A DNA stretch of 64,000 nucleotides from a virus: IMG/VR virus record IMGVR_UViG_3300006175_000009, positions 14,118 through 78,117 of that record; one strand, 5' to 3'. Below are positions 4,785 to 59,636 of this stretch, one piece after another (positions within the stretch are counted from its first letter, which is position 1; each line of letters begins with the position of its first letter). The notes under the pieces were generated by a model that saw only the letters and a list, made by a program, of their open reading frames with translations, was not told the DNA's origin and ran no database searches. Made by a program: the position numbers and the translations under genes.

Positions 4785-4800
4785 ATGTTCAGTTGTTGCG

Positions 4801-7796: not shown

Positions 7797-7853
7797 GGTA
7801 GTAGGCTATCAGTTGGGTTGACTGTGTGTCTAGTTTAGGTGTAGAGGATCGTA

Positions 7854-21800: not shown

Positions 21801-22128
21801 TGGCAGCCTCTAGCTGGGAGGCGTCACCAGCCATGAGGGCAGCATTAAGACGCGCCTGAGCATCTGCCAGAGCACTGGTGGTCAGTGCCGCATTCTCCTG
21901 GGCACGAGTCAGGTTTTCTTCAACGGCTGACATCTTGACAGCGTCGATCTCCCCGCGAGCGTAGGCCGCGTTGAGGCGGTCCATGGCTGCTGTTGAGGAG
22001 TCCGACGCTGCGTTGATGGTCGAACCGAGGTTACGGAAGACGTCAGCAACACTCTTGAGGACGTTGGTTGCCTGGTCCTGAGCTTCAACGACGGCAAGAA
22101 GTGTCATCACTTCGGCTGTGGAAGGCAT
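18808..22128 (-). CDS. Tape measure protein
   Basis: 1106 aa, Ala-rich, TP901-type core, TM segments, 11-residue W repeats, LGISSPSRLF motif. Confidence 0.95.
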   Translation of the reverse strand: MPSTAEVMTLLAVVEAQDQATNVLKSVADVFRNLGSTINAASDSSTAAMDRLNAAYARGEIDAVKMSAVEENLTRAQENAALTTSALADAQARLNAALMAGDASQLEAAMVGVRNAETAAAVSARELEGAQRNLADANLVVANAGTVVKDGIMAAGKAATLASAGILVAAGASVKLAGDFQASTTTLVTGAGVSADRIDEVRKYLLDLSVQAGVSTKELSDGFFQVNSRTGDVTKSMEIMTSASEMAQVHHADLATTVKSVADAMNSYGEKAGSAAQVSNILGQAVEVGGMSMQDLGNSLSSVLPFASSAGVSLSEVAAALGVMTKQGMSAQQASQELAHTIQKLQAPTDTMRNAWNQAGITAQQMTDTLHGPGGLAAALDLATQAALKIAPGGEDAAKAFKQSADAGSALNSMLQSMSPNLQALSQKFLDGNLGAKEYTKAVKEMGAQGAGQGAQFLSLAEKANGFNDALKSGKPGFADFDAALKATTGDQNTMQAALMLTGSHLADFKSKTDEISGAAGTANGKIQGWNQTQETLNFKMKQAKEAFAAAGIVLGTTLLPIVTKIVQAILPWVEKLATLIQHHQTLVKLLVGAAAAVVTMVAGFKALMVVAETVKALSAAFGVLSAAMGLFTTAEEAGTAGMVAFDAAADANPLGAIVLAIELVIAALVALGVGVVYAYNHFKWFHDFVNTVWNGLKEGAMATWHGLEAAFHAIAAAAVWVYDNGILPMWHGIETAYEAVKSATLAVWHALETAWNAVVSAVMGAAQAIWSGIVSVFDAIKGFFEKWWPLLLVIFAFPIAVLVSIWNHFHETITSVAKTVWNAIKDFFVMIWDGLKEGAQAAWNLIKEYIVNPIKSAWNVLVSIGNAIGSTLSSAWNYVASAASSAWNSVKGYIINPFREAYNELASLMGSIGNAISGGFNSILSFLSGIGSWFMSVGSNIVHGIISGVENAGGALLSKLKDLAHSALDAAKSFLGISSPSRLFASEVGKWIPHGVAQGVVAHTSEAVNAVADMAGKLPQAIGVKGAVNIGVNGLNAAGTVMATGLGLTSGGMTAGAAGGGDVHVHVDLGNAVIAGQQGMQDLVRRIGEQVAVKTLPQAGVRIHY

Positions 22129-44952: not shown

Positions 44953-45078
44953 GGGTACACAGTACCACAGTTGTTGCACCTGTGGCAAGACTAAAGCCCG
45001 CCTCCTCAGCTCACGGGAGACGGGCCCTAGTGGAAGGAAACCCAACCCCAGGCGTCCTTCGCTTCTTCCGCAATGATC

Positions 45079-45594
45079 CTAGCCGACGATCTCCGCATCC
45101 ACAACCGGAGCTTCAAGGGCTGGCCTCCCGGAACGGGCAGCGATCTCTGCCTTCAGGCGTTCGATCTCGGCATTGACGGTCTGCATCTCGACCACTTCGA
45201 CCTGGGTCTTGATCGCGGCCTCGACACCTGTAAGCTTGGCGATACGCTCCGACACCTTCACGGCAATGTCGATGGCCCTGGTGTTGCCACGCTCGATGCC
45301 CGTCTGGAGCGAGTTGTACAGCGTGTTGAGGCGCTTCAGCTCGATCATGCGAAGGACTTCCTGGGACGTGCGCTCGTTGTGGAGATACTCTTCCTCCAGC
45401 GCATCGTGTACGTCCTTTGCAGCAGCCTCGGCTGTGCCGTAGCCGAGCTGGTAGGAAATCTCCGCGTAGTCATAGCCCTGGATTCGCATCTCCATGGCCT
45501 GGCGTGTCTTGCCCAGGCGCTTGGCTGCCGCCTCCTTGGCTAGAGCGCGGTCCTCGGAGTCGTCGTACTCTTCATCGAATTCAAGCTTTGCCAT
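45079..45594 (-). CDS. Terminase small subunit (HTH)
   Basis: AMEMRIQGYDYAEISYQLGY...IELKRLN.L...ERIAKLTG; typical of actinophage TerS, upstream of terL. Confidence 0.7.
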   Translation of the reverse strand: MAKLEFDEEYDDSEDRALAKEAAAKRLGKTRQAMEMRIQGYDYAEISYQLGYGTAEAAAKDVHDALEEEYLHNERTSQEVLRMIELKRLNTLYNSLQTGIERGNTRAIDIAVKVSERIAKLTGVEAAIKTQVEVVEMQTVNAEIERLKAEIAARSGRPALEAPVVDAEIVG

Positions 45595-45745
45595 GTCGCA
45601 CCCTTCTAGTGGTGCTTATAGCATAGAACGAGGGGCCAGGCGGGAGCTATCCTCAACCAGTCCTGACCCCTCGTAGTGTTGGAGCCGGGCCTCCCCCAAA
45701 GTGGCTCACACAACACCGATTCGATGATAGACCATCAGATGGCCT

Positions 45746-46093
45746 TTAGGCAACATCCTTTGGACCATTGCAGAGGCACTCCCTGCACGACCCGGATGCA
45801 CCATGGTTGTCCACGAAGTGCTTGCACACCGAACACCTTGCCCCCACGACTGCATCGTTGACCTGGAGGTCTCGGACCGGCTGGAGGATTCCACCAGGCT
45901 TGCTGAACCTGACGGCCTTGTCCGTCACAGGAAGTGAAGGCTCGCTGGCTTCAGCCGAGGCAATAGATGCCCACATCTGAGCCATCTGGCAGTTGTACTC
46001 CCGCATACGCTCGTAGTTCAGACCCGAACGTTCCGCGTCCTTGGCATACCGATGAGCGTTGGTGAGAGCCTCGTTCCAGCCGTCCCAACTCAC
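45746..46093 (-). CDS. Hypothetical protein with C-terminal Cys/His Zn finger
   Basis: GTGA overlap; CSVCKH...H...CRECLC. Confidence 0.5.
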   Translation of the reverse strand: MSWDGWNEALTNAHRYAKDAERSGLNYERMREYNCQMAQMWASIASAEASEPSLPVTDKAVRFSKPGGILQPVRDLQVNDAVVGARCSVCKHFVDNHGASGSCRECLCNGPKDVA

Positions 46094-46734
46094 TGAGTGA
46101 CCTCCTTGATACGGGCAGTCAGGGCATCGTGCTCCTTGTCGCCATCCTGAAGAGCCTTGAAGCTGTCGTCCTGCTTGCCGGAGACACACAGGGTGCCAGC
46201 CAGCTTGTAGTCGTTCAGCATGGCAACGAAGTGCTTCTGGGTCTCCTCGTCTGGAGCAGGCTTGGACTGGTCCATCGCCTTCTGGACGTCGGTGACCATG
46301 CTCGGGCAGAAAATCTGCTGGCTCATCTCGTTGGTCCGATAGTCTCCAGACTTCATCGCACCCTGGTCCATGACCACGGCCATGAGGGGGCCCAGCTCGT
46401 CCATCTGCCACTTGGACAGGTTGGCCTTCGTCTCAGCCTTGCTCGGAGCGGAAGCGACCACCGACACGGAAGCAGAGGGCTTCGCCGCCGGAGCAGGAGA
46501 CTTCTTGTCCGAACCGCTGAGTGCCCAGAGTCCACCGACACAGAGGGCAGCTACTGCAACCAGGGTAGCTCCCCGGAGAACTGTGCTGCTGCGTCGAGGC
46601 TTGGGTGTTCCCTCGGACCACGGACCAGCACTGTAGGTGGTCTCTGCGGCCTTCTGGTAGACGTTGGCGACAGGGTGCTGGCGGTGATCCTTCATCAGAC
46701 CGTCGCGTAGCTCGTCGTCGGAATGGTCGTTCAC
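46090..46734 (-). CDS. Single-TM membrane protein with an extracellular domain
   Basis: RBS AAGGAG plus GTG at 46734; TM segment, then a PAPAAKPS linker. Confidence 0.6.
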   Translation of the reverse strand: MNDHSDDELRDGLMKDHRQHPVANVYQKAAETTYSAGPWSEGTPKPRRSSTVLRGATLVAVAALCVGGLWALSGSDKKSPAPAAKPSASVSVVASAPSKAETKANLSKWQMDELGPLMAVVMDQGAMKSGDYRTNEMSQQIFCPSMVTDVQKAMDQSKPAPDEETQKHFVAMLNDYKLAGTLCVSGKQDDSFKALQDGDKEHDALTARIKEVTQ

Positions 46735-46850
46735 GTGTCTCCTTGGGTTGTCGTTACGGGAGAAGCCTCCCACAACAGTTGTCCTACTGTCAAGTACAAG
46801 GGCATGAAGAAACCCCCAGCCATGGGAGTGACCAGGGGCTTCCTCGAAGT

Positions 46851-47246
46851 TCACCGGTTGCGCTGATCCACACGCACAGAAACGTTTATCGGTGAGGCGT
46901 TGTGTCGGCCGCCCGATGAACCTCGCATATAGGCTAGCACCCCGATGATCCCGAGGATCAAGCCCAGAGCAGTTGTGGCCTTTGCAAGGGCCTCAAACAT
47001 GAAGCTCAGACCCCATGCAGCAGCGCCAAGACCAGCAAGAGCAAAACCAGCTCCGGCAAGACGCTGAGCAAGAGGATCAATCCCAGGACGCCCAGATACT
47101 TCACGAACTTCATGGGTTTCGTAACGGGGTCGGACATGGCGAACTCCTCGGTCGGTTGCCCGGAAAGGCTCCAGCTCTCGCTGCGCAGCCTCTCGATAGT
47201 CCACGAGAAGAGCGTCTAGCTGCTCTCGGAGATCAACATCGTTCAT
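46851..47246 (-). CDS. Two-TM membrane protein resembling small Spd-like proteins of Streptomyces conjugative elements
   Basis: IDPLAQRLAGAG..AG.G + second TM + INVSVRVDQR tail; family recognised from memory only. Confidence 0.45.
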   Translation of the reverse strand: MNDVDLREQLDALLVDYREAAQRELEPFRATDRGVRHVRPRYETHEVREVSGRPGIDPLAQRLAGAGFALAGLGAAAWGLSFMFEALAKATTALGLILGIIGVLAYMRGSSGGRHNASPINVSVRVDQRNR

Positions 47247-47249
47247 GCA

Positions 47250-47530
47250 ACCACGTTACTACCTACTTGTTCCCGTGTCAAGGGTTTCCGGCAGCTATGG
47301 CAGTGCCATGGTTGGATCTAGGGTTTTCGGAGGGTGTTTCCGCAGGTCAGAGCCTGTTTTCTATGGTTACTACGGTACTAGGGAAGAAGTAGTAGACAAA
47401 GAAGTACACAACTAGAAGAAACAATAGGGATTCAACCGTTGCAACCGATGCAGCCGTAGCAACTTGACTCCTACCGCAGTAGCACCTACACTGGAACCTC
47501 ACCCCTGAACTCCTCGAAAGGAACCTGAAC
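47250..47530. other. AT-richer divergent intergenic region; candidate replication origin or genome-end region
   Basis: Strand switch; purine-rich AT tract 47378-47430; three 9-bp tandem repeats at 47434-47460. Confidence 0.45.
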
Positions 47531-47955
47531 CGTGTCGAACCACCGCTTCCTGATCCCACTGGACGAAGATGAACTGGATGAACTCCAGTCGAACGACGAC
47601 GTATGGAGGCCCTGCCCGAACTACCCTGGCTACGACGCCTCATGGAATGGCTGGGTTCGTTCATGGACCGTTCCGAACCACACGGTTCACGGCTACTACT
47701 ACGAGGTTCATCGCGTGAACCCCAAGGTGAACGGCCAGGTTCTGAACCGGCACCGTGGTCAGCTCGTGGCCGACGCCTTCCTGGTTCAGCCCGAACCGCA
47801 GTGGAACCTGACCTGGGAGGACGGAAACAAGCTGAACCATGCAGCCAAGAACCTCTCATGGGAGGACAGGCTGACCAGGGTTCAGCGGGCGAACCAGGCT
47901 GCTAAGCTGAACGGCAACCGTCCGCACAAGAGTCACTGCATCTGGGGACATGAAC
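47494..47955. repeat. GAAC/GTTC motif array 2
   Basis: About 28 copies in 462 bp (hand count), mostly inside the HNH-like CDS. Confidence 0.75.
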
Positions 47956-48230
47956 TGTCAGGGGACCTGGTTAGGATCACGGGTGACGGTTCCAACATGT
48001 GCATCGTCTGTTCACGTGCGCACGCCTCCCGGTACCAGGAGATCAGGACCCTGAAGAAGAAGGGCCTTCCGTATGACCATGTCACCCATGAGTACGTCCT
48101 GAAGCGTAAGGGCGTGTGGGTACCGGAAGACCAGCGACCTGAGGGTGCCCGGAAGAGGCCCCGATCCAACAAGCGAAACCAGAAGCTCAGGGAAGGACGT
48201 ATCACTCATGGCTCGGATGCTGCTTCGTGA
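47532..48230 (+). CDS. NUMOD4-HNH-like protein, probably catalytically degenerate, with a C-terminal Zn finger
   Basis: WRPCPNYPGYDASWNGWVRS (NUMOD4); LVADAFL..WEDGNKLNHAAKNLSW; KSHCIWGHEL...CIVC. Confidence 0.7.
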   Translation: MSNHRFLIPLDEDELDELQSNDDVWRPCPNYPGYDASWNGWVRSWTVPNHTVHGYYYEVHRVNPKVNGQVLNRHRGQLVADAFLVQPEPQWNLTWEDGNKLNHAAKNLSWEDRLTRVQRANQAAKLNGNRPHKSHCIWGHELSGDLVRITGDGSNMCIVCSRAHASRYQEIRTLKKKGLPYDHVTHEYVLKRKGVWVPEDQRPEGARKRPRSNKRNQKLREGRITHGSDAAS

Positions 48231-49068
48231 GGCGAAGCGCCACCACCACTACTGCTGTCCCGGTCACACTGCTAAGGGCTTCGATGCCCAGAACGCGAGG
48301 TCTCGTGAGCGCAATGTATGGCGCAAGGATGCTCGGTACCTTCTCGGCTCCAACCTGCCCAAGCTGCCGGAGGTCTTCGGGGCTGGACTGCGCTGAGATC
48401 GCACGGGCCAAGCAGGCTCAGCGACAGTACGAGAAGCGATCATGGCGGAAGGAGGTTGCACAACAGCGGGAAGAGGTGTAAGCTTGTCATCAGGACAAGG
48501 CAAGGAGGACAAGTGCTCCACTTCATCTACAACACCCTGGCAGTCATCGGGGGCTTCTCGGTGGTGATCTTCCTCTGGCAGTTCATCGTGGCGATCGTCA
48601 CCGTGATCGAGCTGGACCGGAAGGCCACTGCCGACAAGGCGGCCGAGGAGAACGAGATCCGCGAGAACCTGGAGAACGTGCGATGACCATCGACACCTTC
48701 ATGACGGGCTCTCTCGCTGTCATCATGGGCATCCTCGTCCTCGCGTTCGTGTACTGGGGCTGGAAGTTCGCCTCTCTCGCGTACTACGAGGAGAAGCTCA
48801 AGCTGGAGCAGAAGTACAAGGCCGAAGAGCCGAAGGACCAGAAGTGAACGGCCCGCTCATCGGTGTTATGGCCGTGATTGTGGCTGCCTTCGTGGTGGCC
48901 ATGATCTGGGAGGGCATCAAGGAGTACCGCAAGATGAAGGCTTGGGAGCACGACTTCCAGGCCAGACTGGACGCGGTCCGTCGTGAGCACGTAGCAATGC
49001 GTGATCAGATGTACCTCGACCACTTCAACCGCAAGATGAGTGACAGGCTCTCCAAGGAGGAGAAGTGA
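48208..49068 (+). other. Cluster of small hypothetical genes, several single-TM (e.g. 48513-48686, 48683-48847, 48844-49068)
   Basis: Chain of ATGA/GTGA overlaps, RBS AAGGAGG, high GC3. Confidence 0.5.
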
Positions 49069-49475
49069 AGGTCAAGTACGACGAGGTCGGCACCGTGACG
49101 GTCAGTGGCCGTGTCGTGCTGGGTCTGGCTGCTACGGTTGTGGCAGTCGGTGCGATCGGGTACGGTAGCTACGAACTGTTCTGGGACGTGAAGTCCAACA
49201 CCACCGACCGGAACGCCCAGATCGGCCGCCAGAACCTTGCGTTCCAGCAGAGCCGCATGGACGAGATCAGCCGCAAGCTCAACGAGAAGACCGCGCTGGA
49301 GAACGCTCTCGGCTCCGATGCCTCCCCGGAGGACGTGGCCAAGAACAAGGCGCAGGTCACCGCCATCCGCGACCAGATCTGCTCCGACTACGGGGATCTG
49401 ACCACCTCGTACAAGAACACACTGAACCCGGAGCGCTACTCCACTCTGGTACAGCTCTGCGAGGTGCAGAAGTGA
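49065..49475 (+). CDS. Membrane-anchored hypothetical protein
   Basis: N-terminal TM; helical domain with two Cys. Confidence 0.65.
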   Translation: MKVKYDEVGTVTVSGRVVLGLAATVVAVGAIGYGSYELFWDVKSNTTDRNAQIGRQNLAFQQSRMDEISRKLNEKTALENALGSDASPEDVAKNKAQVTAIRDQICSDYGDLTTSYKNTLNPERYSTLVQLCEVQK

Positions 49476-49943
49476 GCGCCATCAAGGAACTGAAGCCGTG
49501 CCACAACAAGAAGTGTGACCGGCACTACGAGGAGGCCAACACCCTCTTCTGCTGCAACAACTGCGCCAAGGCTGACGAATGGATGCTGAACCTGGCAGAC
49601 GTTCTGATCTCCGAGGACCCGCGCGTCGAGAACGTCCGCGAGTTCGAGAACGAGCTTCCCCACAAGCACTCGCCTGAGTGCCTGGCTCCCGCTTCCTGAT
49701 GAGCCGCAAGGACTGGACTGCCCGGCAGCATATCGAGAGAGCTTTCCATGTCTCCTTCATGCTGCCGGAGCAGGCGGCCCAACTGCTTGACGAGTATCGG
49801 GCCGAGGTTCGTGCCGAAGCCTTCCAAGAGGCCGTTGACTTCGTAAGGTCAGGGCCGGTTCCGAAAGAATCCGGGCGTCACTGGCATTGGTACCAGTTCG
49901 CCCTCAACCGAGCCGCAGACAGGCTCAAGGAGAGGTTCCTACA

Positions 49944-50537
49944 GTGAAGAACTACAAGCGCCCCCTGCTCGCCCTTGGTGTCACGGCCGCCATGGCGTTC
50001 AGCTTGACCGCCTGCTTCGGTGACGACTCCAGCCCGAAGGACTCCAACCAGCAGAAGGAGCAGCAGCAAGCCACCAACGGCATCAGCCAGCTCCTGGCCG
50101 CCCAGCCGGTTCACAGCTACTCCTACAGCCAGCTTCGCCAGAACCTTCAGGAGCTGGAGGACGCCCAGGCCAACGGCACGGTCACCACGGCCTTCTTCAT
50201 GCACATGGGCCTGAACGACCCGATCTTCTCCTGCCCCGCCATCGGTGCCCCGATCGCCTCCACCACGGAGCTGACCAACCCGCACCAGACGGAGCGCCAC
50301 GACGGGCAGTACAACGGCGGAAACACCGTTCTGGACCAGATGGACCCCACGGGCGTCTACTCCGGCCAGAGCACCGGTACCTACGTCATGTGCGTGGGTC
50401 AGAACGGCCAGGTCAACCCGGTCTACTGGGAGGGCTCGGTCCTCACCGCCTACGGTCCCGCGCACTGGGACAAGGCCGCGCACAACATGGTCATCGACGG
50501 CCCTTCGGGCTCCAAGTTCTCCGGGGTGAAGAAGTGA
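49944..50537 (+). CDS. Lipoprotein
   Basis: Signal peptide with lipobox SLTA-C; near-complete GC3. Confidence 0.7.
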   Translation: MKNYKRPLLALGVTAAMAFSLTACFGDDSSPKDSNQQKEQQQATNGISQLLAAQPVHSYSYSQLRQNLQELEDAQANGTVTTAFFMHMGLNDPIFSCPAIGAPIASTTELTNPHQTERHDGQYNGGNTVLDQMDPTGVYSGQSTGTYVMCVGQNGQVNPVYWEGSVLTAYGPAHWDKAAHNMVIDGPSGSKFSGVKK

Positions 50538-50707
50538 GCTACCACCCGCACACCACGCACGTCGTGCACACCCACAGCGTCCACGTGGTTCACCACTACC
50601 ACTGGTACCAGCCGCACTACTACTATGGCTCTGGTGGTCACCTGTTCCTCACGATCATGCTGTTCTTCGCGCTGATCGGTGTGGCAGTCTGGCTCGTCAA
50701 GCGGTAG
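50534..50707 (+). CDS. Small His/Tyr-rich membrane protein
   Basis: GTGA overlap; His-rich N-terminus and one TM. Confidence 0.55.
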   Translation: MSYHPHTTHVVHTHSVHVVHHYHWYQPHYYYGSGGHLFLTIMLFFALIGVAVWLVKR

Positions 50708-50713
50708 GAGATC

Positions 50714-50745
50714 GCCCCTCGGGATTCCGGGGGGCTTTCTCGTTT
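50714..50745 (+). terminator. Intrinsic terminator
   Basis: GCCCC...GGGGC hairpin followed by TTTCTCGTTT. Confidence 0.7.
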
Positions 50746-50747
50746 GC

Positions 50748-50777
50748 TTGACAACCTAACGGTGGTTGCACTACCTT
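50748..50777 (+). promoter_or_regulatory. Promoter for a leaderless gene starting at 50784
   Basis: TTGACA-N18-TACCTT, ATG 6 nt downstream. Confidence 0.6.
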
Positions 50778-50783
50778 AGGGGC

Positions 50784-50993
50784 ATGAAGAACGAGGAGAG
50801 CGTCACCGGGTGCCGATACTGCGGATGGGACGGATCGCACGGATTCGCCGCACCGCACAAGTACACCCCACCCGCAGAAGACCAGCTCAAGCAGCGTATG
50901 AAGTTCAGGCGAGTGATTCGTGAACTGAAGAGCTTGCGGAACGAACTGAACCGTGCTAACCTGGATGCACAACGACGGGGGGATCTCCCCTGA
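50784..50993 (+). CDS. Small Cys/His protein
   Basis: GCRYCG...H...H..TPP...LKQRM. Confidence 0.55.
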   Translation: MKNEESVTGCRYCGWDGSHGFAAPHKYTPPAEDQLKQRMKFRRVIRELKSLRNELNRANLDAQRRGDLP

Positions 50994-51017
50994 GGAAACG
51001 TTCTAGGGAGTACCCCC

Positions 51018-51263
51018 ATGGCAGTTCGCAAGAAGAACCCCAACGTGCGCGACTTCATCAAGAAGGTCCGCGCGGGTCTCGGGATGAGCCAGGCGGCCTT
51101 CGCCAAGTACATCGGCACCAATCTGGCCACTCTTCAGCGCTGGGAGTCCGCCACCGCAGCTCCGGGTGGGCTCATGGTGATCCGCCTGTTCGAAGCGGGC
51201 GTGGATATCACGGAGCTGGGCAAGGCATTCGAGGCCGACGCGGCCCTTCCGGCTGCGGCCTAA
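51018..51263 (+). CDS. XRE-family HTH regulator
   Basis: IKKVRAGLGMSQAAFAKYIG...TLQRWES. Confidence 0.85.
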   Translation: MAVRKKNPNVRDFIKKVRAGLGMSQAAFAKYIGTNLATLQRWESATAAPGGLMVIRLFEAGVDITELGKAFEADAALPAAA

Positions 51264-51273
51264 ACCAAGAAAC

Positions 51274-51308
51274 GCGAAAGCCCCGGCGATCCAGACCGGG
51301 GCTTTCGC
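51274..51308. terminator. Bidirectional-type hairpin terminator
   Basis: GCGAAAGCCCCGG / CCGGGGCTTTCGC 13-bp inverted repeat. Confidence 0.65.
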
Positions 51309-51334
51309 TGACAACACAAGGAGGAGTGGTTGCA

Positions 51335-52333
51335 ATGACGAGTATGAACGGTTCCGGTTTCGAAAGCAAGCTCAACGAGATCAAGGGACACAAGACCGCC
51401 AAGTCCGAATTCAACCGGGACCGTGCGGCGAAGGTGATCATCTGGGGTGCCACCGATCTGGTCGCGCTCTTCGCGCTGGCGCTGGGAGCCTGGTCCAACC
51501 AGACCGTGGCCAAGTGGCTCGGGTTCCCGGACCTGGCTGGCTGGGGCTTCTCCATCGTGATCGACGGTGTGTGGCTCGTGTCCATCGCCCTGATTCAGCT
51601 CCACCGGGAACAGCCCTGGAAGGCCGTACAGGCTTACCAGGCGGTCTACTACATGGTGGCCCTGAGCGCACTGACCAACTTCGGACACGGACTGATCCGA
51701 TTCGGTGTGAGCTGGCACGGCGCAGCGGCTGGTCTGGCCTTCGCGGTCCTGCCGATCTCGCTGAAGTGGCTCATCTCGGCTTCGACCAACAACCGGATGG
51801 GAACCCTCCTGAAGGCCCCGAACGCAAAGTCGCGGCTGAAGGATGCCGGGATGGTTCGGGCGGAACTGGAACTGAACGAGGCTCTCCAGCCGCTCATGAA
51901 CCTGGTGAACCAGTCGAGTTCCGATGAGGAGTCGCAGGTTCGGGCCCTTCAGAACCCGATCGAGAACGAGACCCCGGTTCAGGTTCGCCTGGATCGAGTC
52001 GAGGAGGAGGACCCGTTCGAGATTCCGAGCTGGGTGAACACTCCTCGCGCTGCGATCGAACCTCCGAAGCCTGTGGTTCCTGCTCAGCCGAACCTGGTTC
52101 CGGTGGAGAGCCCGAAGGTTCCGACCCAGGTTCAGATCAACTCCCGGCAGGAGCGGGTGAACGACCTGGCGCAGAGGATCGGCCAGAACGGCGGCCAGCT
52201 CAACTCCGTGACCTTCGCCCAGATCTCCGAGTGGTACGGGATCGACGCCAGCAAGAAGAGCACCCTCTCGGTCCTCCGCAAGGACGCACACCAGCGCTAC
52301 CTGGACAAGGCGACGCAGGGCCCGTACATGTGA
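51335..52333 (+). CDS. DUF2637/Spd-like membrane protein with a probable C-terminal DNA-binding domain
   Basis: Four TM segments (A.WLG...AGWGFSIVIDG, LSALTNFGHG, AVLP); Pro-rich linker; C-terminal VTFAQISEWYGI...STLSVLRK HTH-like segment. Confidence 0.65.
   Translation: MTSMNGSGFESKLNEIKGHKTAKSEFNRDRAAKVIIWGATDLVALFALALGAWSNQTVAKWLGFPDLAGWGFSIVIDGVWLVSIALIQLHREQPWKAVQAYQAVYYMVALSALTNFGHGLIRFGVSWHGAAAGLAFAVLPISLKWLISASTNNRMGTLLKAPNAKSRLKDAGMVRAELELNEALQPLMNLVNQSSSDEESQVRALQNPIENETPVQVRLDRVEEEDPFEIPSWVNTPRAAIEPPKPVVPAQPNLVPVESPKVPTQVQINSRQERVNDLAQRIGQNGGQLNSVTFAQISEWYGIDASKKSTLSVLRKDAHQRYLDKATQGPYM
51854..52189. repeat. GAAC/GTTC motif array 3, inside the DUF2637-like gene
   Basis: About 22 copies in 336 bp (hand count); many produced by GTT-C and GAA-C codon choices. 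Confidence 0.75.
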
Positions 52334-52342
52334 TCGAGACAG

Positions 52343-52388
52343 GAAGCCCCTCATTTCACTTCGGTGAAGTGGGGGGCTTCTTTGTTTT
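52343..52388 (+). terminator. Intrinsic terminator
   Basis: GAAGCCCC.CA.TTCAC-TTCG-GTGAAGTGGGGGGCTTC followed by TTTGTTTT. Confidence 0.8.
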
Positions 52389-52416
52389 GACTCTGCGTCA
52401 ATTTGCCCTCTAGGAT
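52387..52416 (+). promoter_or_regulatory. Promoter of the traB-like gene, with a palindrome over the -35
   Basis: TTGACT-N18-TAGGAT; TTGAC-N5-GTCAA. Confidence 0.6.
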
Positions 52417-52444
52417 TGTTAGTCCATCAAGGAGGCTCTTTGAA

Positions 52445-54289
52445 ATGCAGACGCACTGGCGGAACACCCTAACCGGAAGCATCGCAGTGGCTACAGCGGC
52501 CACAGTCACAGGACTTGTCACCCATGCCGAGTACGGCCAGCAGGCTCAGCTTGTCGAAACTCTGGTCGCTGGACTGGGGGGGACGGCTGCCCTGAAGCTG
52601 CTCTTCGACCAGAAGGACGGGCACGGCTTCAAGGAGGGCCTTGGCACCTCTCTGGGCTGGCTGGCCACCTTCGCCGGAGACGCTGCCATTGCGGGCTGGG
52701 AGGGTGGTGGACAGCAGTCGTTCTGGGCTTGGCTCGGTGGAGCTGCTGCTTCCGTGGCTCTTGGGTTCTCGTGGGCTGAGCATCGCCGCCACGACCGTCT
52801 AGAGCGTCACCACCGGACCGTGAGCATCAGGACCATGGAGACCAATTCCAAGATCGCCCTTATGCGTGAGGAGATGGCTGGACTGAAGCTCCTCCGGGAG
52901 CAGGAGAAGATGATGCCAAGTCCGGCTGAACAGCCGCCGGTATTCACCCGGAACATCGCGGGGAACATTCAGCACGCCATCTGGGAACTCAATGCGGGGA
53001 AGGTCATCATTCCGAGCGCTCATGTCACGGAGAACAAGCGTGGCTGGGAGGCCCGTCTGACACTTCCCAATGGCTACGGCCTGAAGAAGCTTGAGCGGGA
53101 TTGTGACGGCATCGCCCAGTCACTCGATCTGCTGGAGGTCCCGGAGGCCGTCTCTGGCGCTTCCAAGGGCCTGGCTGTCCTCAAGTACCGGGAGCCCGTT
53201 GAACTGCCGTCAGAGGTGCGCTGGAGCCCCGTCTCGCCCGGCAAGTGGTCCGACCCCGTGCTGCTCGGCATTGATGAGGACGGGAACACGGTCACCCTGG
53301 ACCTGAATGTTCACGCTCTGGTGGCTGGTGCTACCGGATTCGGGAAGTCCACCCTGATCAACACCATCATTCTCCAGCTTGCAGAGCGTGAGCATGTCAA
53401 GGTTACGGGCATCGACATGAAGCCCTTCTCTCCGGAATTCACTCCGCTCAAGCCGATCCTGAATGGCCTGATCTCCGATCTGGAAACCGCTCACTCGGTG
53501 CTCGACACCATCCGGGACGAGCTGTACATCCGTGGCGAGATCATGCAGAAGAACGGGTGGAAGAAGTGGCAGCCCTCTGCCGAAAAGCCCATCCGCTACT
53601 ACTTCTTCGATGAGTACGCGGAGCTGATCCGGCAGGACAAGGAACGCATCAAGGAACTCAAGGCAGCCAAGGGTCAGGCGAAGATGGATCAGGAGGCTTC
53701 CGACTTCAAGACGATTCAGTCCAAGGTCGAATCCATCCTGGCCATGTCGCGCGCCTACGGGCTGTACCTGGTGCTGGCCACTCAGCAGCCTTCAGCGGCT
53801 CTCTGGGGTGATGACACAGGCGCTCGTGGCAACTGCCCAATCCGCATCTGCTTCACCATGTCAGAGGCCACCCACGACCGTTTCGTGCTACCTGCTGGTT
53901 GGTCCACCGAGATCCTGGACGGTAAGCGCGGCCGGTTCGTCATGAAGAGCCCCATGCACATGACACAGGACCCGTACCTGGCGTTCATCGTGGATGACGA
54001 CCAGCTTGCCGACGAAGTGTTCCGCATTTCCATGAAGGTCCCTGAGCGCCCTCTGAGTGACTCGGAGGACACGATGGACACTCGGGTTGACTGGCTCACC
54101 AAGAGCCAGGGACAGAGCCCGCGAGAGCGTGTCATGAGCGTCCTCATGGCTGGTCCGGCCACCAAGCGGGAGATCGCCGACAAGACCAACCTGGACCCCG
54201 TTGGCTCCCAGCTCAAGCACGCGCTGAACGGCCTCCGCAAGGAAGAGGTCATCCAGGTGGACCCTGACAACGTGTGGTCCCTGACGTAA
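52445..54289 (+). CDS. TraB-like FtsK/SpoIIIE DNA translocase (N-terminal TMs, ATPase, C-terminal winged HTH)
   Basis: RBS AAGGAGG; VLLGIDEDG, HALVAGATGFGKST, GIDMK, FFDEYAEL, SRAYGLYLVLATQQP; C-terminal ERVMSVL..GPATKREIADKT...LNGLRKEEVI...W. Confidence 0.8.
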   Translation: MQTHWRNTLTGSIAVATAATVTGLVTHAEYGQQAQLVETLVAGLGGTAALKLLFDQKDGHGFKEGLGTSLGWLATFAGDAAIAGWEGGGQQSFWAWLGGAAASVALGFSWAEHRRHDRLERHHRTVSIRTMETNSKIALMREEMAGLKLLREQEKMMPSPAEQPPVFTRNIAGNIQHAIWELNAGKVIIPSAHVTENKRGWEARLTLPNGYGLKKLERDCDGIAQSLDLLEVPEAVSGASKGLAVLKYREPVELPSEVRWSPVSPGKWSDPVLLGIDEDGNTVTLDLNVHALVAGATGFGKSTLINTIILQLAEREHVKVTGIDMKPFSPEFTPLKPILNGLISDLETAHSVLDTIRDELYIRGEIMQKNGWKKWQPSAEKPIRYYFFDEYAELIRQDKERIKELKAAKGQAKMDQEASDFKTIQSKVESILAMSRAYGLYLVLATQQPSAALWGDDTGARGNCPIRICFTMSEATHDRFVLPAGWSTEILDGKRGRFVMKSPMHMTQDPYLAFIVDDDQLADEVFRISMKVPERPLSDSEDTMDTRVDWLTKSQGQSPRERVMSVLMAGPATKREIADKTNLDPVGSQLKHALNGLRKEEVIQVDPDNVWSLT

Positions 54290-54292
54290 CGC

Positions 54293-54323
54293 GAAAGGCC
54301 CCCGGCTCATCACCGGGGGCCCT
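54293..54323. terminator. Terminator between convergent blocks
   Basis: GGCCCCCGG / CCGGGGGCC hairpin. Confidence 0.7.
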
Positions 54324-54326
54324 CGT

Positions 54327-55148
54327 TCAGATCTGGTGCGGATGGTTCAACCTGTCGTTGAAGCGGTCCACCATCTCCACATCGACCTTGCGAGCGATGT
54401 AGAAGGTTCCCTGGGGGGAGTCCCAGACGGAGATCCCGTCCTTGTCCAGCTCCTTCAGGATGATGGCCTTCACGTTGTTGATCTTCTGAACATCTTCGTT
54501 CGTGATGGTCAGTGCGGCCTTGTGGATGGCCAGATGGGGCTTTCCCTCGTAGAAGGTGCCATCCGTTCCGCCCAGAACGTACATCTCGCTCATGTGTAGA
54601 GGCATCAGAAATTCACCTCGTTCATCAGCTCCGCGTACTGGTTCTCGATGTGCCAGGCCAGGTCACGCATGTCCACCCTCATGACGAAGGTCTCGTTTCC
54701 TCGGTAGCACATGCTCAGCTCCTCCACCGAGCGCCAGTCGGCACCCTTCTTGAGGAAGACGTCCAGGTGTTCTCCGGTGCCCGTCTCGTAGCAGAACTTC
54801 TTGCCCTCGTTGAGCTCCAGGGCGTCGAACTTGTTCCGAACATCCTGCCGGAGGCTCGCCCGGTTGATGCGCTTGCCATTGCTTGCTCGTGCCAGCATTT
54901 CGTGCTCCTTGCCTTGCTTGCGTGCTACTACAGTAGCAGTCTTACGAAGTCGGGTCAACCCAGTCAACAGACTGGATCTGAACATGACCAAGAGCAGCAC
55001 ACCCCAGCAGATACACAGCAAGAGCATTCTGAAGGTCATCCTCTCCGGCCCACTGATCAGGGTCCAGAGTAACCATCATACGGACGGAAACAGGGACGCG
55101 CCGCTCCTCATCGAAGAGCGACGCGTCCTCCTTGAGCTTCTTGATCAA
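54327..55148 (-). other. Three small hypothetical genes (54327-54605, 54605-54898, 54942-55148)
   Basis: Packed ORFs with phage codon bias. Confidence 0.5.
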
Positions 55149-55627
55149 CGCTTGCCACCACTCGCGGGACGCGCAGGGGCCGGAGCCGCAGGACGCGGAG
55201 CAGGCGCAGCGGGCTTGGGGGCCGAACCGGCGGGCTTGTTGTTGTTCACCGTGACGTTCGTGGTCTTGTTGATCGTCACGTTGGTGGTGCGGCCCGGCTG
55301 GTAGCTGCTGCGCTTCACGTAGACCGTGCTGTAGTTGGCCGGACGCGGAGCGGTGGACCAGCAGCCGCAGTAGCCCGTGCGGGGGTAGTACACGTGGTAG
55401 GAGTAGGGGATCACCGTACCCATCGGGTAGCAGTTGTTGACGTAGAGGCCCGCGCCCCAGCTCATCACGCACTCCTGGCCGGGGTGGGCCAGGACGTAGG
55501 TGTTGTAGGTGGCCTGCTCGGCGGCGGTGGGCTCCGGAACGTAGTCACCATCGTCCGAGCCACACGCGGTCAGAGCGAAGGTGAGAGCGGCACCGCAGAG
55601 CGCGAGCTTCCAAGCCTTGCTGTTCAT
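55145..55627 (-). CDS. Lipoprotein with Tyr/Cys-rich core and Pro/Ala tail
   Basis: Lipobox ALTA-CG; RBS GAAAGGA. Confidence 0.7.
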   Translation of the reverse strand: MNSKAWKLALCGAALTFALTACGSDDGDYVPEPTAAEQATYNTYVLAHPGQECVMSWGAGLYVNNCYPMGTVIPYSYHVYYPRTGYCGCWSTAPRPANYSTVYVKRSSYQPGRTTNVTINKTTNVTVNNNKPAGSAPKPAAPAPRPAAPAPARPASGGKR

Positions 55628-55669
55628 GTGAGTTCCTTTCGAGCCCTTGTCTTGCTGACAAGAAGAACT

Positions 55670-56206
55670 CTACACCCTCCCGAGCAGTTGTGCAACCTCC
55701 TTGAGGTACAGCCTGCGGACCTGGTTCCAGCGGGCGTCGGCAAGGGCGTTGTGGGCCCCTGAAGGCTGTTCAGGCATCGCCGGGTACCCGAGACGTTCGC
55801 ACTCCTGCATTATGTCGTTGGTGCGCATGGGGAAGCCCGCAGGAAGGTCGATCATCCGCCCGAAGAACTGGCACACCGCGACGTGATCGTAGGACGCGAA
55901 GTAGGCCCACAGAGAAGGGTTGGTCGTGTCCATGACGAAGCGTCGAATGTCAGCGGCGATCTCGTCCTTGGTCTTGATCTTGTCGAAGTCCGGATGCGTC
56001 TCGTCCCAGGGGTCTTCCCTGTCGAACCTCACGGGCAAGCTGTTCATGACGTTCTGCATGAGCCATGCGTGCTTCCGGATGCGCGGCAGTGGCATGTCAC
56101 GGTTGACAGCGTAGTACTCCTTGCCATCTGCCCTGACCATGCCAATCGAGATGGGCTCGATGGTGACGCCGTCCTCAAGGAACTCAAGGTCGTAGTCGAT
56201 TTCCAC
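55670..56206 (-). CDS. DEDD 3'-5' exoribonuclease, Rv2179c/RNase AS-like
   Basis: YDLEFLEDG...ISIGMV, W...NV, LWAYFASYDHV, HNALADARW. Confidence 0.85.
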   Translation of the reverse strand: MEIDYDLEFLEDGVTIEPISIGMVRADGKEYYAVNRDMPLPRIRKHAWLMQNVMNSLPVRFDREDPWDETHPDFDKIKTKDEIAADIRRFVMDTTNPSLWAYFASYDHVAVCQFFGRMIDLPAGFPMRTNDIMQECERLGYPAMPEQPSGAHNALADARWNQVRRLYLKEVAQLLGRV

Positions 56207-56258
56207 GATTCTCCAATCACCGATGGCCCCGCCTCACAAGGAGACGGGGCCGTTGGGG

Positions 56259-57359
56259 TTACTGCATTTCGGTGGGCTCTTCACCCAGGACGTTCTTGCC
56301 ACGGGTCAGGTAGTCGGCCGAGACCGACTTGACCAGCGCCAGACCCCTCAGGAGAGGAGAAGTGCGAGGCGGGGCGGCCTGGACCACGACACCCTCACGG
56401 ATGTGCAGCTCGCGGCCGGAGAACTGCTCCATACCGTCCGTCAGCTCGGCCACCTTCTCCTTGCTGTATGGACCGACGTAGAGCACCGGCACGCACGGAA
56501 CCTCGCGGGGAAGCATGGCGTGCGGGCTGACCCACTGCTCTCCGGTCTGGTACTTCAGCAGCATGGCGTAGGCCGCGAAACCGACCTTGCCCGTACGGCC
56601 GTTGGCACCGTAGTGGAGATCCTGCACACCCTCACCGAACACCTCACCGAACAGCGAGATGCTGACAGCGTGCGGGAAGCTCAGCGCCAGAGTGGCCAGA
56701 GCCTCCTTCAGGCTGTACTCATGGGCCGCCCGCCAGTAGAGGTTGTGCTCGTCCTCCTTGAGCGCGTAGCCGTCCTTGGAGATGCCCTTCGAGCTGACCT
56801 GGAGAGTGTCCGTGGCCGTCTCGTAGGTGCTCACGAAGCAGGTTCCGTGGAGCTTCTCCGTGATCTCCACCTGCTCGCCCTCGGTGAAGACCTTGCCATA
56901 CTTCTTGACCGACTCGACCTCGAACATCGGGACCAGGTCAGGCGCGGCCTCGATGGTACCGCTCATCGCGATGGCCACCTCGGGCACGAACTTGACGATC
57001 CCCAGAGCCTCGGCCCAGGTGTCACCAGGGCGAGCGCCGTTCTCGGTGGCGATCCGAGTTGCCACGGGCTCCGGGATGATCAGACCCTGCGACAGCTCAC
57101 CACGGAGCTTGATGGCCTTGACCACGTTCTTGGTCTTGCCGCCGAGACGACCCTTCAGCCCCAGCTCGTCCAGGATCTTGTCGGGGACGATACCGCCCTC
57201 GGGGACGTAGACAACCTCGTCGTAGTCCTTGTAGGCGTTCAGCCCGGTGACCACCTGGAAACCGTCCTCGGAGCCCACGTTGGCCAGGCTGAGCGAGTCC
57301 GCGTTCGGGTGCTTGCGGCAGTTGTGGAGCTTCTCCACCGTGACTTCGTACTGAGCCAT
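56259..57359 (-). CDS. RNA ligase, DRB0094 (Rnl5)-type with an N-terminal OB-like domain
   Basis: HPNADSL, KLRGELSQGL, TEKLHGT, FGEVFGEGVQ, REGVVV, KSVSADYL. Confidence 0.9.
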   Translation of the reverse strand: MAQYEVTVEKLHNCRKHPNADSLSLANVGSEDGFQVVTGLNAYKDYDEVVYVPEGGIVPDKILDELGLKGRLGGKTKNVVKAIKLRGELSQGLIIPEPVATRIATENGARPGDTWAEALGIVKFVPEVAIAMSGTIEAAPDLVPMFEVESVKKYGKVFTEGEQVEITEKLHGTCFVSTYETATDTLQVSSKGISKDGYALKEDEHNLYWRAAHEYSLKEALATLALSFPHAVSISLFGEVFGEGVQDLHYGANGRTGKVGFAAYAMLLKYQTGEQWVSPHAMLPREVPCVPVLYVGPYSKEKVAELTDGMEQFSGRELHIREGVVVQAAPPRTSPLLRGLALVKSVSADYLTRGKNVLGEEPTEMQ

Positions 57360-57489
57360 GTGCTTTTCCTCCCTGTCGTTGTGCTACGAGCTTACCAGCT
57401 CCTAGCCTCCAGCGCAAACAAAACTTGCCTAGAAAGCCAAGTTGCCAGTTACAGGCAAGTGGCCATTCTAGGCAAGTTGTGCCGATCTG

Positions 57490-58410
57490 CTAGAAGTTGC
57501 CAGGTGCCACCTGCCAGGTCGTGAGACCCATCAGGCGATACACGTCAACCACCATGTTCCGGTCGTCCAGGGCCAGCTTGACGTCGTAGTTCGGGGCGAT
57601 GTGCTCCCAGAACATCTCAGGCTTGACGATGCCGTCCGAACGAGTGTCATGCGGCGGGCGCATGAACAGATCGTCGTAGAAGACCTTGTCCCGCTTGAGC
57701 GTCGTCACGGTGTGGTCCCGGTAGAGACCGTCCCGTCCAGAGGCCAGCACGATGGCGTAACCGGCCGCTGCAAACAGCTTGATGGCCTCGTGCGTCATCG
57801 GCTTGATGGTGTCCTTGTAGACCGCGTAGAAGGCGTACGGAGACCGGTCGCCCATCTCGTACAGCGTTCCGTCAAGGTCCACCAGGATGGCCTTGGGCTT
57901 CCCCGGAGTCCCCTCGTACTTACGGACCGAGATCTTGAGGTCGTTCATCCACTCGTTGGTGAGGGTGAACCCCTTGCGCTCCTGGTCCAGAAGAGTCCGG
58001 TTCATCTTCTTGATCACGTCAGCCCCGACCTGAGCTGGGCCTTCACGGAACGAGTCGTTCCAGATGCAGCTCTCGGCAGAGACGTATGTGAAGTCCCGAA
58101 CGTAGAAGGTGACGTCCTCCAGCGCAAGGGCCTTCTTGTACTTCTTGAGCCAGTCAAGGCGGATGTGGCAGTTGTCGATCACCACGTTGTGACCCGCCCT
58201 GACCATGGTGACCAGGCTGGTGAGCATGAGATCGAAGGCTACCGCCTCCTTCTCCTTGGTCCACAGGTCCGATCCGTTCTCGAAGCCCAGCATGGCCCTG
58301 TAGGAGTCCATGTTGAGCCGGTAGTGGTTCGGGCTGTCGGCGACGAAACGAGAGGCCCACGTGGACTTACCGCTTCCTGGCAGGCCCCTCGTCACGTATA
58401 CGTCTGTCAC
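57490..58410 (-). CDS. Polynucleotide 5'-kinase / 3'-phosphatase (T4 PseT-like)
   Basis: RGLPGSGKST, VIDN; HAD motifs DLDGTL, SGR, LFMR, DDR. Confidence 0.93.
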   Translation of the reverse strand: MTDVYVTRGLPGSGKSTWASRFVADSPNHYRLNMDSYRAMLGFENGSDLWTKEKEAVAFDLMLTSLVTMVRAGHNVVIDNCHIRLDWLKKYKKALALEDVTFYVRDFTYVSAESCIWNDSFREGPAQVGADVIKKMNRTLLDQERKGFTLTNEWMNDLKISVRKYEGTPGKPKAILVDLDGTLYEMGDRSPYAFYAVYKDTIKPMTHEAIKLFAAAGYAIVLASGRDGLYRDHTVTTLKRDKVFYDDLFMRPPHDTRSDGIVKPEMFWEHIAPNYDVKLALDDRNMVVDVYRLMGLTTWQVAPGNF

Positions 58411-59546
58411 TCGTCCTCGTCCTTCCGGAAACGAACCTTGCCGTAGGGCTCCACCTGCTTCCAGAGCCACTTGTCCAGTCCGGCAGTGTTCTTGTCGTAC
58501 AACATGAACAGTACCTTACTGAACTCGCTCCCCGCAACCGCCAGCGCGAAATCCTTACGGGCGCTGACCTTCTCGTAGCCCACGCCAAGCATGGCCTTGT
58601 TGTACTCGCGGGTGAGGCGAGCCTTCAGACGGGAGCGCTGGCCCTTGAGCTTCTTCTCCACGCCCTTGGCCCACTCCATCAGCTCATCCGGTGCACCCTT
58701 GTCCATCAGGTCGTTCAGGGTGCCACCGTTGGACAGGAGACGCCAGATGCCCTTCTCCGTGGTCTCGGTGAACAGGCCGTGGAGCTGGAGGTACTTGGCG
58801 CTCTTGCACTTGGCCATGGTGCCGTCCGGCCACTGGAGAACCAGGCCCTCGAAGTCCGTGCCCGCGTCCGTAGACTGCTTGATCCACGCGGACAGGGTCT
58901 TGGCGTCCTTGCCGTAGACGGGCCACTGCTTGACGACAGAGCCGATTGGGGCCCAGCCCTCCGCCAGGGTCTCCAGGCGCTGGTAGGCACCCGTGTAGAG
59001 GCTCCTCGCACCCAGCAGGATCAGGTCGGTACGGCCCTTGTAGTCCACCACGATCCGGAACTGCGGAGCGATGAACTCGGCAAGGTACGTGAGCGAACGG
59101 TCCAGCATCTTGGTGTTCTTGGTGTCCAGGTACTTCTCGGCCGCGATGGAAACGTCGGATGCGAACGATCCCTTGGACGCCACACGCCACTTGCCGTCGT
59201 ACCAGTAGACGATGGCCAGAGAGCCATCCTCCTTGGTCGTGGCGACCGGAGTGGTGTTCGGAAGAGGCTGAACGTGCTTCGGCCGGTCCTCACCCTGCGC
59301 CTCGTGGAGGTCCACCAGGAAGGTCTTCGGGAACGGCAGGGCCACGATCTCGCCAATGTCGTCCACGATCAGGCCGCGAGTCTGCTTGGTGACGTCGGTC
59401 CAGTGGGAGTCGAACACACAGGCGTTCTCGTAGACGTACAGGGCCAGCTCATACTGGTCGTGGTACTTCTCGCGGACGTACCCGGAACGGATCTCGTTGT
59501 CCAGCTCCTTGGTGTCCATCAGGTCGTGGATCGTCAGTCGAAGCAT
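58407..59546 (-). CDS. RNA ligase 1 (T4 RnlA-like)
   Basis: RGLI...PFPK.F, KEDGSL, SKGSFAS, RIVVDY, EGLV, K.KS..YL.LH. Confidence 0.9.
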   Translation of the reverse strand: MLRLTIHDLMDTKELDNEIRSGYVREKYHDQYELALYVYENACVFDSHWTDVTKQTRGLIVDDIGEIVALPFPKTFLVDLHEAQGEDRPKHVQPLPNTTPVATTKEDGSLAIVYWYDGKWRVASKGSFASDVSIAAEKYLDTKNTKMLDRSLTYLAEFIAPQFRIVVDYKGRTDLILLGARSLYTGAYQRLETLAEGWAPIGSVVKQWPVYGKDAKTLSAWIKQSTDAGTDFEGLVLQWPDGTMAKCKSAKYLQLHGLFTETTEKGIWRLLSNGGTLNDLMDKGAPDELMEWAKGVEKKLKGQRSRLKARLTREYNKAMLGVGYEKVSARKDFALAVAGSEFSKVLFMLYDKNTAGLDKWLWKQVEPYGKVRFRKDEDE

Positions 59547-59636
59547 CGCTTCCTCCTTGGTTGATGCCACCATAGTAGCAGAGAGCTTTCCACCCTGTCA
59601 ACGAAGAAGGCCCCTGGTTTCCCAGAGGCCCTCCCG

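Follow-up and report, generated by a model that had tools for sequence, protein, structure and literature searches.

This study concerns a 64,000-nucleotide stretch of viral DNA (hereafter, the window), which covers bases 14118–78117 of a linear viral contig of 78,117 bp from a public virus collection (IMG/VR record IMGVR_UViG_3300006175_000009), and in particular a cassette of plus-strand genes encoding an XRE-family regulator, a four-helix membrane protein and an FtsK/SpoIIIE-type ATPase. The cassette is best read as being built like the TraB/Spd/clt apparatus of Streptomyces plasmids, yet as belonging to a separate phage and prophage lineage. Its use is proposed more tentatively, at somewhat less than even confidence: it may be a TraB/Spd-like, sequence-directed pump for double-stranded DNA (dsDNA) that moves phage DNA across hyphal septa. 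The analysis adds a separate clade of phage and prophage ATPases, a fixed pair of DUF2637-type and ATPase genes, and element-specific arrays of short repeats in the linker-coding region of the DUF2637-type gene. The genes and signals of the cassette are as follows (aa, amino acids; ORF, open reading frame):

51018–51263, plus strand: XRE-family helix-turn-helix regulator, 81 aa (Pfam HTH_3, E 1.7e-8)
51335–52333 (ORF 51326–52333), plus strand: four-helix membrane protein, 332 aa, likely start ATG 51335 behind AAGGAGG
51797–52198: array A, 24 copies of GAAC/GTTC within the linker-coding part of the membrane-protein gene
52341–52382, plus strand: terminator-like hairpin of 19 pairs, 3' of the membrane-protein gene
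52387–52416, plus strand: promoter-like site TTGACT-18-TAGGAT, 5' of the ATPase gene (consensus match only)
52445–54289 (ORF 52403–54289), plus strand: single-motor FtsK/SpoIIIE ATPase with a probable N-terminal membrane anchor, 614 aa, likely start ATG 52445 behind AAGGAGG

A first-pass annotation, made from the letters of the sequence, had named the XRE gene, and the Pfam match bore this out; PHROG repressor and regulator families also matched the protein. The same annotation had described an FtsK/SpoIIIE ATPase with N-terminal transmembrane helices, a C-terminal winged helix and its own promoter. The motor of the ATPase, which is identical to database protein P0003, was matched by PF01580 (E 1e-13), and its Walker A (GATGFGKS) and Walker B (DEYAE) motifs were invariant across eight family members. 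The C-terminus (residues about 559–613) was modelled as a winged helix with a predicted local distance difference test score (pLDDT) of 80–88, and Foldseek matched it to Crp/MarR-type winged helices. The N-terminal helices held up in part: three to four Gly/Ala-rich helices were placed in residues 8–111, but they are weakly hydrophobic, one alone passes a hydropathy threshold, and this part of the model has low confidence. A separate promoter agrees with the terminator-like hairpin and the promoter-like site that follows it, as consensus matches.

The annotation had further taken the ATPase to be of TraB type and had proposed a phylogeny against TraB, chromosomal FtsK and EccC as a check. Domain order supported a TraB-like plan, as the ATPase family was collinear with pIJ101 Tra from the pre-motor domain through the winged helix (hhalign probability 97.6%, E 2.7e-12). 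The profile of the eight-member family matched solved FtsK (E 1.9e-17) and TcpA of pCW3 (4.3e-16), and EccC far more weakly (4.4e-7); Foldseek likewise ranked TcpA and FtsK first and EccC lower. The EccC/EssC architecture was ruled out, since the 614-aa protein has one motor, as against three in >1200 aa, and the EccC models and structures were the weakest matches. No FtsK_4TM, FtsK_alpha or FtsK_gamma Pfam domain was detected in the ATPase, in which only the beta domain (PF01580) was found; canonical FtsK matches all carried PF17854 and PF09397. On the NCBIfam models, the ATPase scored 42.5 bits for TraB (cut-off 800) and 34.7 for FtsK. Because scores from hidden Markov models (HMMs) left TraB versus FtsK unsettled, a tree was built with true TraB genes drawn from Streptomycetaceae genomes and with EccC left out.

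The tree had three well-supported groups: canonical NF041214-type TraB (100), chromosomal FtsK (99), and a phage and prophage group. In the last, the query family (100) was joined to a second clade (100) by the Shimodaira–Hasegawa-like approximate likelihood-ratio test (SH-aLRT) at 94; this second clade comprised Kitasatospora and metagenome proteins, gp10 of Streptomyces phage Gilgamesh and a protein of a 130-kb Streptomyces plasmid. FtsK from Mycobacterium phage WXIN also fell within the FtsK clade, and the protein of Bacillus phage Goe3 was its sister. The pIJ101 Tra protein and pRL2-11 lay on very long branches, pIJ101 Tra being on the FtsK side. On this phylogeny, the ATPase is neither a chromosomal FtsK nor a canonical TraB but a member of a third clade, made up of proteins from phages and prophages. 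The TraB assignment thus stood for domain order and failed for clade membership, and separation from chromosomal FtsK was confirmed.

The placement also bears on whether the ATPase is a helper for genome entry or another lytic step, pulling in the injected genome or moving host or phage DNA during replication, with no cell-to-cell movement. Genes of the FtsK/SpoIIIE kind are frequent in large lytic phages that infect unicellular bacteria such as Bacillus (of the 250 phage records matched, 156 were Bacillus phages), and the block holding the cassette resembles part of the early region, with a similar GC content at third codon positions (GC3). The Bacillus and Mycobacterium phage proteins, however, fell on the FtsK side of the tree, outside the ATPase clade, and a pump made after infection would be useless for the entry of that same genome. 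Among the collections searched, the ATPase clade and DUF2637 proteins occurred only in phages, plasmids and genomes of Streptomycetaceae, and this restriction weakens a lytic-helper role, which is considered quite improbable.

The second component, annotated at first as a four-transmembrane DUF2637/Spd-like protein, is identical to database protein P0123. Its four helices were confirmed by hydropathy and by the AlphaFold model within residues 34–159; they are followed by a long amphipathic helix, a disordered Pro-rich linker (about residues 205–270) and, in the model, a compact C-terminal three-helix domain (pLDDT about 90). The assignment to DUF2637 was upheld by profile methods and not by Pfam, for neither Pfam (its DUF2637 model included), NCBIfam nor PADLOC matched the protein. 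In hhalign comparisons, the 18-member family of the membrane protein matched the DUF2637 protein of pRL2 (probability 94%, E 1.2e-7) and a set of four DUF2637 proteins (probability 96%, E 1.1e-9), and gave no match to the DUF2637 protein of Gilgamesh (E 0.16). An HMM search of 1.8 billion representative proteins found 39 relatives, 35 of them outside the close family; 11 of these 35 remote matches carry PF10935, and several have C-terminal helix-turn-helix domains. In a protein atlas, used as a lead only, DUF2637 clusters lay nearest to the membrane protein and SpdB clusters, at 0.89, close behind (scores of 0.89–0.91). The protein is accordingly taken, on these profile matches, as a probable divergent DUF2637 relative that lies below Pfam's own threshold. 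The Spd half of the description was weaker at the sequence level, as given below; the modelled architecture of four helices and a C-terminal domain fits the SpdB/SpdB2 plan. Foldseek with the model of the membrane protein gave no significant match.

The two genes were found together in other elements, as a survey suggested in the first-pass annotation had anticipated. Relatives of both proteins were each found on contigs of 102,035, 75,851, 43,194 and 29,523 bp, and a phage contig of 87,841 bp encoded a terminase 82% identical to that of the window phage together with an ATPase 42% identical. In Kitasatospora mediocidica, the gene before that of an ATPase relative (P0021) encodes a 334-aa DUF2637 protein (PF10935, E 1.8e-7) that has the architecture of the window membrane protein, down to a C-terminal G-x-Y-L ending. 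This locus was assigned to a prophage because a terminase gene lies 8 kb downstream; at a second chromosomal pair locus, the terminase is 7.4 kb downstream. Relatives of P0021 were present in 10 of 301 sampled Streptomycetaceae genomes. Among the nine genomes with a full-length ATPase relative, a DUF2637 gene stood directly upstream on the same strand in five; such genomes have only 4–10 DUF2637 genes each per about 8.5 Mb. The neighbourhood of DUF2637-superfamily genes with FtsK-like or TraB genes was also seen on the linear Streptomyces plasmid pRL2 (in the order GntR regulator, small genes, DUF2637 gene, FtsK-like ATPase) and at chromosomal TraB loci: at one of these the DUF2637 gene adjoins a TraB-like gene, and at another it is 2 kb from a bona fide TraB. 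All DUF2637 relatives in the phage and plasmid collections came from Streptomyces. Judged from these neighbourhoods, the DUF2637 gene and the ATPase gene form a conserved cassette. In K. mediocidica, a gene for an Mrr-type restriction endonuclease lies directly 3' of the prophage pair (L044:12350-13078).

Other searches were narrower in yield. No relatives were found by the scan of genome contigs with the ATPase family, nor by the IMG/VR scans with the protein and both family alignments; the metagenome scan returned only relatives at 22–28% identity, and megablast of the region against phages gave no match. In phiC31, which is reported in the literature to hold an SpdB2 homologue, no DUF2637 or PF01580 gene was detectable.

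GAAC-based words ranked near the top of the 4- to 6-mers of the genome for local clustering. Besides array A, which lies 250–650 bp upstream of the ATPase gene, the arrays are:

47470–47960: array B, 28 copies, which begin in the promoter region and extend into the opening gene of the plus-strand block
7840–8020: array C, intergenic, 12 copies in 180 bp
8.35–8.7 kb of the contig, about 5.7 kb before the window start: fourth array, GAAC/GAACC, 18 copies in 300 bp

Expected counts within coding sequence were obtained by resampling synonymous codons for the same protein (2000 resamplings). Array A has 24 GAAC/GTTC copies against 8.6 ± 2.0 expected, and 24 was reached in none of the 2000 resamplings; the copies occur in both orientations (14/10) and in several codon phases, and Val is encoded by the locally rare GTT in 8 of 14 cases. 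Neither the membrane-domain part of the gene nor the ATPase gene had a GAAC/GTTC excess. The part of array B within the ORF has 24 copies (9.7 ± 2.2 expected; 0 of 2000 resamplings reached 24). The fourth array (GAACC P about 4e-10) is inside a 618-aa minus-strand ORF with no assigned function. Related cassettes have other words at the same place: the linker-coding region of the K. mediocidica prophage has 15 copies of CGCATC (2.3 expected), a motif common to a related cassette, and that of another prophage has 10 copies of AGGGCG (2.5 expected). Each of these two arrays lies in the linker-coding stretch of the DUF2637 gene, with copies in either orientation and in several codon phases. The array of prophage L068 was ambiguous. 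Published clt loci are arrays of short direct or inverted repeats that vary between plasmids and are recognised by the matching Tra protein, which binds them with helix 3 of its winged helix (PMC3583192, PMC4447253), and array A is a candidate for such a cis-acting site.

A word cluster was also noted in pRL2, where AACTGAAC occurs nine times in 300 bp near one end (positions 528–880); no other word in that record has so strong a local cluster. The core of the AACTGAAC word resembles the phage GAAC motif.

If the cassette is a DNA pump, the ATPase would be anchored in the membrane by its N-terminal helices and, like its relatives, would presumably form a hexameric ring that pumps dsDNA, with the 332-aa DUF2637-type protein as its membrane partner. 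A small DNA-binding domain would read the GAAC/GTTC arrays, so that the phage genome is chosen as cargo; either the ATPase, through its winged helix, or the membrane protein, through its three-helix domain, could be the reader. In a mycelial host, such a pump would probably serve to carry phage DNA, replicating or resident, through the cross-walls of hyphae, and perhaps from one mycelium to another, with no need of virions. Phage spread inside a compartmented mycelium is poorly understood, and a phage-borne pump with a matching genome site would, if real, be a route that needs neither virions nor receptors and would change how the containment of plaques, the spread of lysogens and gene flow in Streptomyces are viewed. 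The arrays within the DUF2637 gene would give a direct handle for binding and mobilisation assays.

Several observations weigh against such a pump of TraB/Spd type. The ATPase clade was not joined to characterised TraB, and the deep order of the three clades was left open by the tree. The order of the TraB and FtsK scores was reversed for one member of the ATPase family; moreover, the NCBIfam TraB model failed to recognise pIJ101 Tra and is therefore too narrow to discriminate. The membrane-protein family matched pIJ101 SpdB weakly (hhalign E 0.009, probability 4.6%), in an alignment that includes the shared motifs DGxWL and LPxxxK, and the DUF2637 set did not match it (E 0.33). The regulator is of XRE type, not of the GntR type found in plasmid kil-kor pairs. 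The pumping of dsDNA would empty the donor compartment of that copy and would be sensible only together with replication. A Streptomycetaceae host is itself only hinted at, by relatives. The array of prophage L064 was rejected as a cis site, as it is merely an Ala-Glu peptide repeat. Finally, four prophage cassettes with differing arrays have almost the same presumed recognition helix in the ATPase (SRDTVRRAL), so that the arrays may be read by a protein other than the ATPase.

The C-terminal domain of the membrane protein, by comparison, varies together with the array motif (three independent lineages, to be read as an anecdote only), which suggests that the membrane protein may be the reader. 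A more specific form of the pump reading follows this lead and is thought unlikely: the linker-coding array, dense, particular to each element and lodged in coding sequence under little constraint, would be a loading site, read by the C-terminal helix-turn-helix of the membrane protein, which would pass the DNA to the FtsK-like pump. With four arrays, the outcome would be a spread of naked dsDNA between hyphal compartments, and the proteins would constitute a phage-specific third lineage of dsDNA translocation beside FtsK and TraB.

The published properties of the TraB/Spd/clt systems (PMC4447253, PMC3583192, PMC3429521) were used for comparison. Like TraB, Tra or TraA of pSVH1, pIJ101 and pWTY27, the phage ATPase has a single FtsK-type motor, a probable N-terminal anchor and, in the model, a C-terminal winged helix. 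Also shared are a four-helix putative membrane partner, with a C-terminal domain, whose architecture fits the SpdB2 type, a short-repeat array nearby, small translationally coupled genes for membrane proteins and a repressor gene close by. The phage system differs in that its ATPase is in a clade apart from NF041214-type TraB, its regulator is XRE in place of GntR, its membrane-protein gene is upstream of the motor gene, and its array is inside a coding region, with three further arrays in the genome. Its carrier is a tailed phage in which no plasmid replication module was seen, unlike the TraB plasmids and the actinomycete integrative and conjugative elements.

Chromosomal FtsK/SpoIIIE shares the motor fold and the plan of an anchor, a motor and a winged helix that reads short DNA motifs, but the phage ATPase lacks FtsK_4TM, FtsK_alpha and FtsK_gamma and is outside the FtsK clade (99). 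TcpA of the Clostridium plasmid pCW3 is the best structural match to the motor (Foldseek E 6e-11) and is a conjugation ATPase with an N-terminal membrane anchor; it differs in working with a relaxase in a multi-protein transfer system of a unicellular Firmicute, and the identity is 18–20%.

Closer to the window cassette, Gilgamesh gp10 belongs to the same ATPase clade (SH-aLRT 94), and the K. mediocidica prophage has the same gene order, the same array position and a terminase nearby. The Gilgamesh and prophage ATPases are nevertheless only 33–38% identical to the window ATPase over the motor domain, the DUF2637 and FtsK-like genes of Gilgamesh are about 68 kb apart, phage BlueOtter has a DUF2637 protein without an FtsK-like gene, and in the prophage cassettes the array motif changes from element to element.

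The notion of a phage/conjugative-element hybrid, put forward in the first-pass annotation, is not new. Thoma et al. (2015) suggested that actinophages use their SpdB2 homologues to promote the spread of phage DNA (PMC4447253), and reports on Streptomyces phages regularly list FtsK-like genes with no function assigned (PMC13587820, bioRxiv 10.1101/2024.02.16.580700, PMC10117723). The plasmid-phage pZL12/phiZL12 (Zhong et al. 2010), as cited in PMC3583192, is both a phage and a conjugally transferred replicon, and on that account is a published precedent for such a hybrid; according to the same citation, its conjugal transfer needs a tra gene and two neighbours. As described there, pZL12 differs in living as a plasmid, and it is set beside the window phage by description only. 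The 'putative adaptation' named in the title of Smith et al. (2013) reportedly refers to the rare UUA codon and not to the spread of DNA, and it was set aside.

The same parts could also serve the maintenance or segregation of a phage-plasmid or carrier state. The arrays would then be centromere-like, the membrane protein with its helix-turn-helix would tether the DNA, and the ATPase would clear or sort copies across closing septa, including sporulation septa, and so ensure inheritance by compartments and spores. Chromosomal FtsK and SffA act at sporulation septa. The four arrays are dispersed over the contig and do not form a single site, no integrase was found in the 78 kb, and relatives of the ATPase occur on circular Streptomyces 'plasmids' of about 130 kb, a size like that of phage Gilgamesh. 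On a 93-kb plasmid, a DUF2637 gene adjoins a gene with a ParB domain, which is counted on the same side, as is the literature view of phage ftsK genes as possible tools for manipulating host development (PMC10117723). Yet the region showed neither ParA nor another partition ATPase, the contig is incomplete, and the prophage copies are in integrated elements, which have no need of a partition system. Segregation would employ the same mechanism as the proposed transfer pump and differ in purpose alone; it is regarded as distinctly unlikely.

The circular records just mentioned are NZ_CP070374.1 and three other Streptomyces 'plasmids' of 130–133 kb, and the Gilgamesh genome is 129 kb. Their FtsK-like protein was sister to Gilgamesh gp10 in the tree, and they may be phage-plasmids.

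The membrane ATPase and its partner might instead exclude superinfecting phages or defend the cell by blocking or expelling incoming foreign DNA. PADLOC matched the motor to FtsK-like components of defence systems (mad8, E 1.4e-14; SspH, E 1.9e-9), the oppositely oriented and separately promoted block with an XRE regulator is like accessory genes expressed from prophages, and an Mrr-type nuclease gene lies 3' of the cassette in the Kitasatospora prophage. These PADLOC matches were, however, confined to the generic ATPase domain; PADLOC matched no full system, and the membrane protein matched none. A device against foreign DNA would, moreover, need no motif arrays on the phage's own genome. A defence role is given only a small probability, and the preferred use of the cassette is still the transfer of phage DNA between compartments.

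The XRE, membrane-protein and ATPase genes occupy the 3' end of a block at 47532–54289, which gene calling by GC3 showed to be the sole plus-strand block of the contig. The other features of this region are:

47464–47492, plus strand: promoter-like site TTGACT-17-TACACT at the head of the block (consensus match only)
47532–50537, plus strand: operon of a 232-aa HNH-like protein, four small membrane proteins, a Cys-rich 75-aa protein and a 216-aa lipoprotein
50714–50735: terminator-like hairpin
50766–50993, plus strand: 75-aa Cys-containing protein upstream of the XRE gene
54297–54321: GC-rich hairpin GGCCCCCGG / CCGGGGGCC between convergent gene ends (read from the sequence)

The four small membrane proteins of the operon have one helix each and are encoded by genes that overlap by 4 bp; the lipobox of the lipoprotein is LTAC, and a weak match to a homing endonuclease was found in the operon. 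These genes may have roles in the cassette. The 75-aa protein at 50766–50993 had no family match.

Being the only plus-strand block, the region might be an assembly chimera or a recently inserted foreign element, as the first-pass annotation had warned. Single contigs from three sequencing runs, which may share one sampling campaign, covered 45000–56500 undivided and with zero differences, and no joined form without the block was seen among the contigs of these runs. In GC3 the block is like the early genes beside it, arrays of the same motif are present at other places in the genome, and a related phage contig also has the ATPase. A chimera was rejected on the undivided contigs and the matching GC3, and the whole explanation, insertion included, is considered extremely improbable.

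The first-pass annotation had also listed a further Spd-like gene with two transmembrane segments at 46851–47246. This 131-aa ORF does have two hydrophobic segments, but its GC content by codon position (0.75/0.49/0.48) is unlike that of real genes here, no family match was found in Pfam, NCBIfam, PADLOC or PHROG, and the proposal was dropped.

The window phage is an uncultured siphovirus from soil, with the following minus-strand genes:

889–3621, minus strand: primase-polymerase
8347–9351, minus strand: endolysin, Amidase_2 plus PG_binding_1
18808–22128, minus strand: tape-measure protein
35007–38990, minus strand: portal fusion
41828–43282, minus strand: large terminase

The portal gene encodes a 1327-aa fusion with a ParB-like domain in its C-terminal part (residues about 1044–1113). 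The completeness of the contig was estimated at about 77%. The genome is taken as ~100 kb because the 102,035-bp contig carries proteins identical to three genes of the window phage. The first-pass annotation had reported no integrase in the window, and no tyrosine or serine recombinase domain was detected in the 78-kb contig; the absence stands but decides nothing, since about a quarter of the genome is missing.

The host is hinted to belong to the Streptomycetaceae by the relatives of several genes. The endolysin is 47–68% identical to endolysins of Streptomyces phages, which made up 100 of the 219 phage records that it matched; a Streptomyces genome contains a terminase 63% identical to that of the window phage, and the closest relatives of the ATPase in cellular genomes come from Kitasatospora. 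The window DNA was present in rhizosphere metagenome runs, and no RNA run was among the listed sequencing runs that contain it.

GC3 was lower in the virion genes (about 0.60–0.72) than in the early genes and the plus-strand block (about 0.75–0.93), a contrast suggesting that the two halves differ in history or in expression regime. At 4010–4895 of the window, ARAGORN and Rfam located four tRNA genes (Met, Thr, Leu and Ile), and Rfam at gathering thresholds returned nothing else over the window. A minus-strand trio at 55670–59573 encodes an Rv2179c-like 3'-5' exoribonuclease, an RNA ligase with an OB/tRNA-binding domain and a T4 Rnl1-type RNA ligase; judged by these domains, it resembles an RNA-repair set that could act on tRNAs cut by host defence nucleases.

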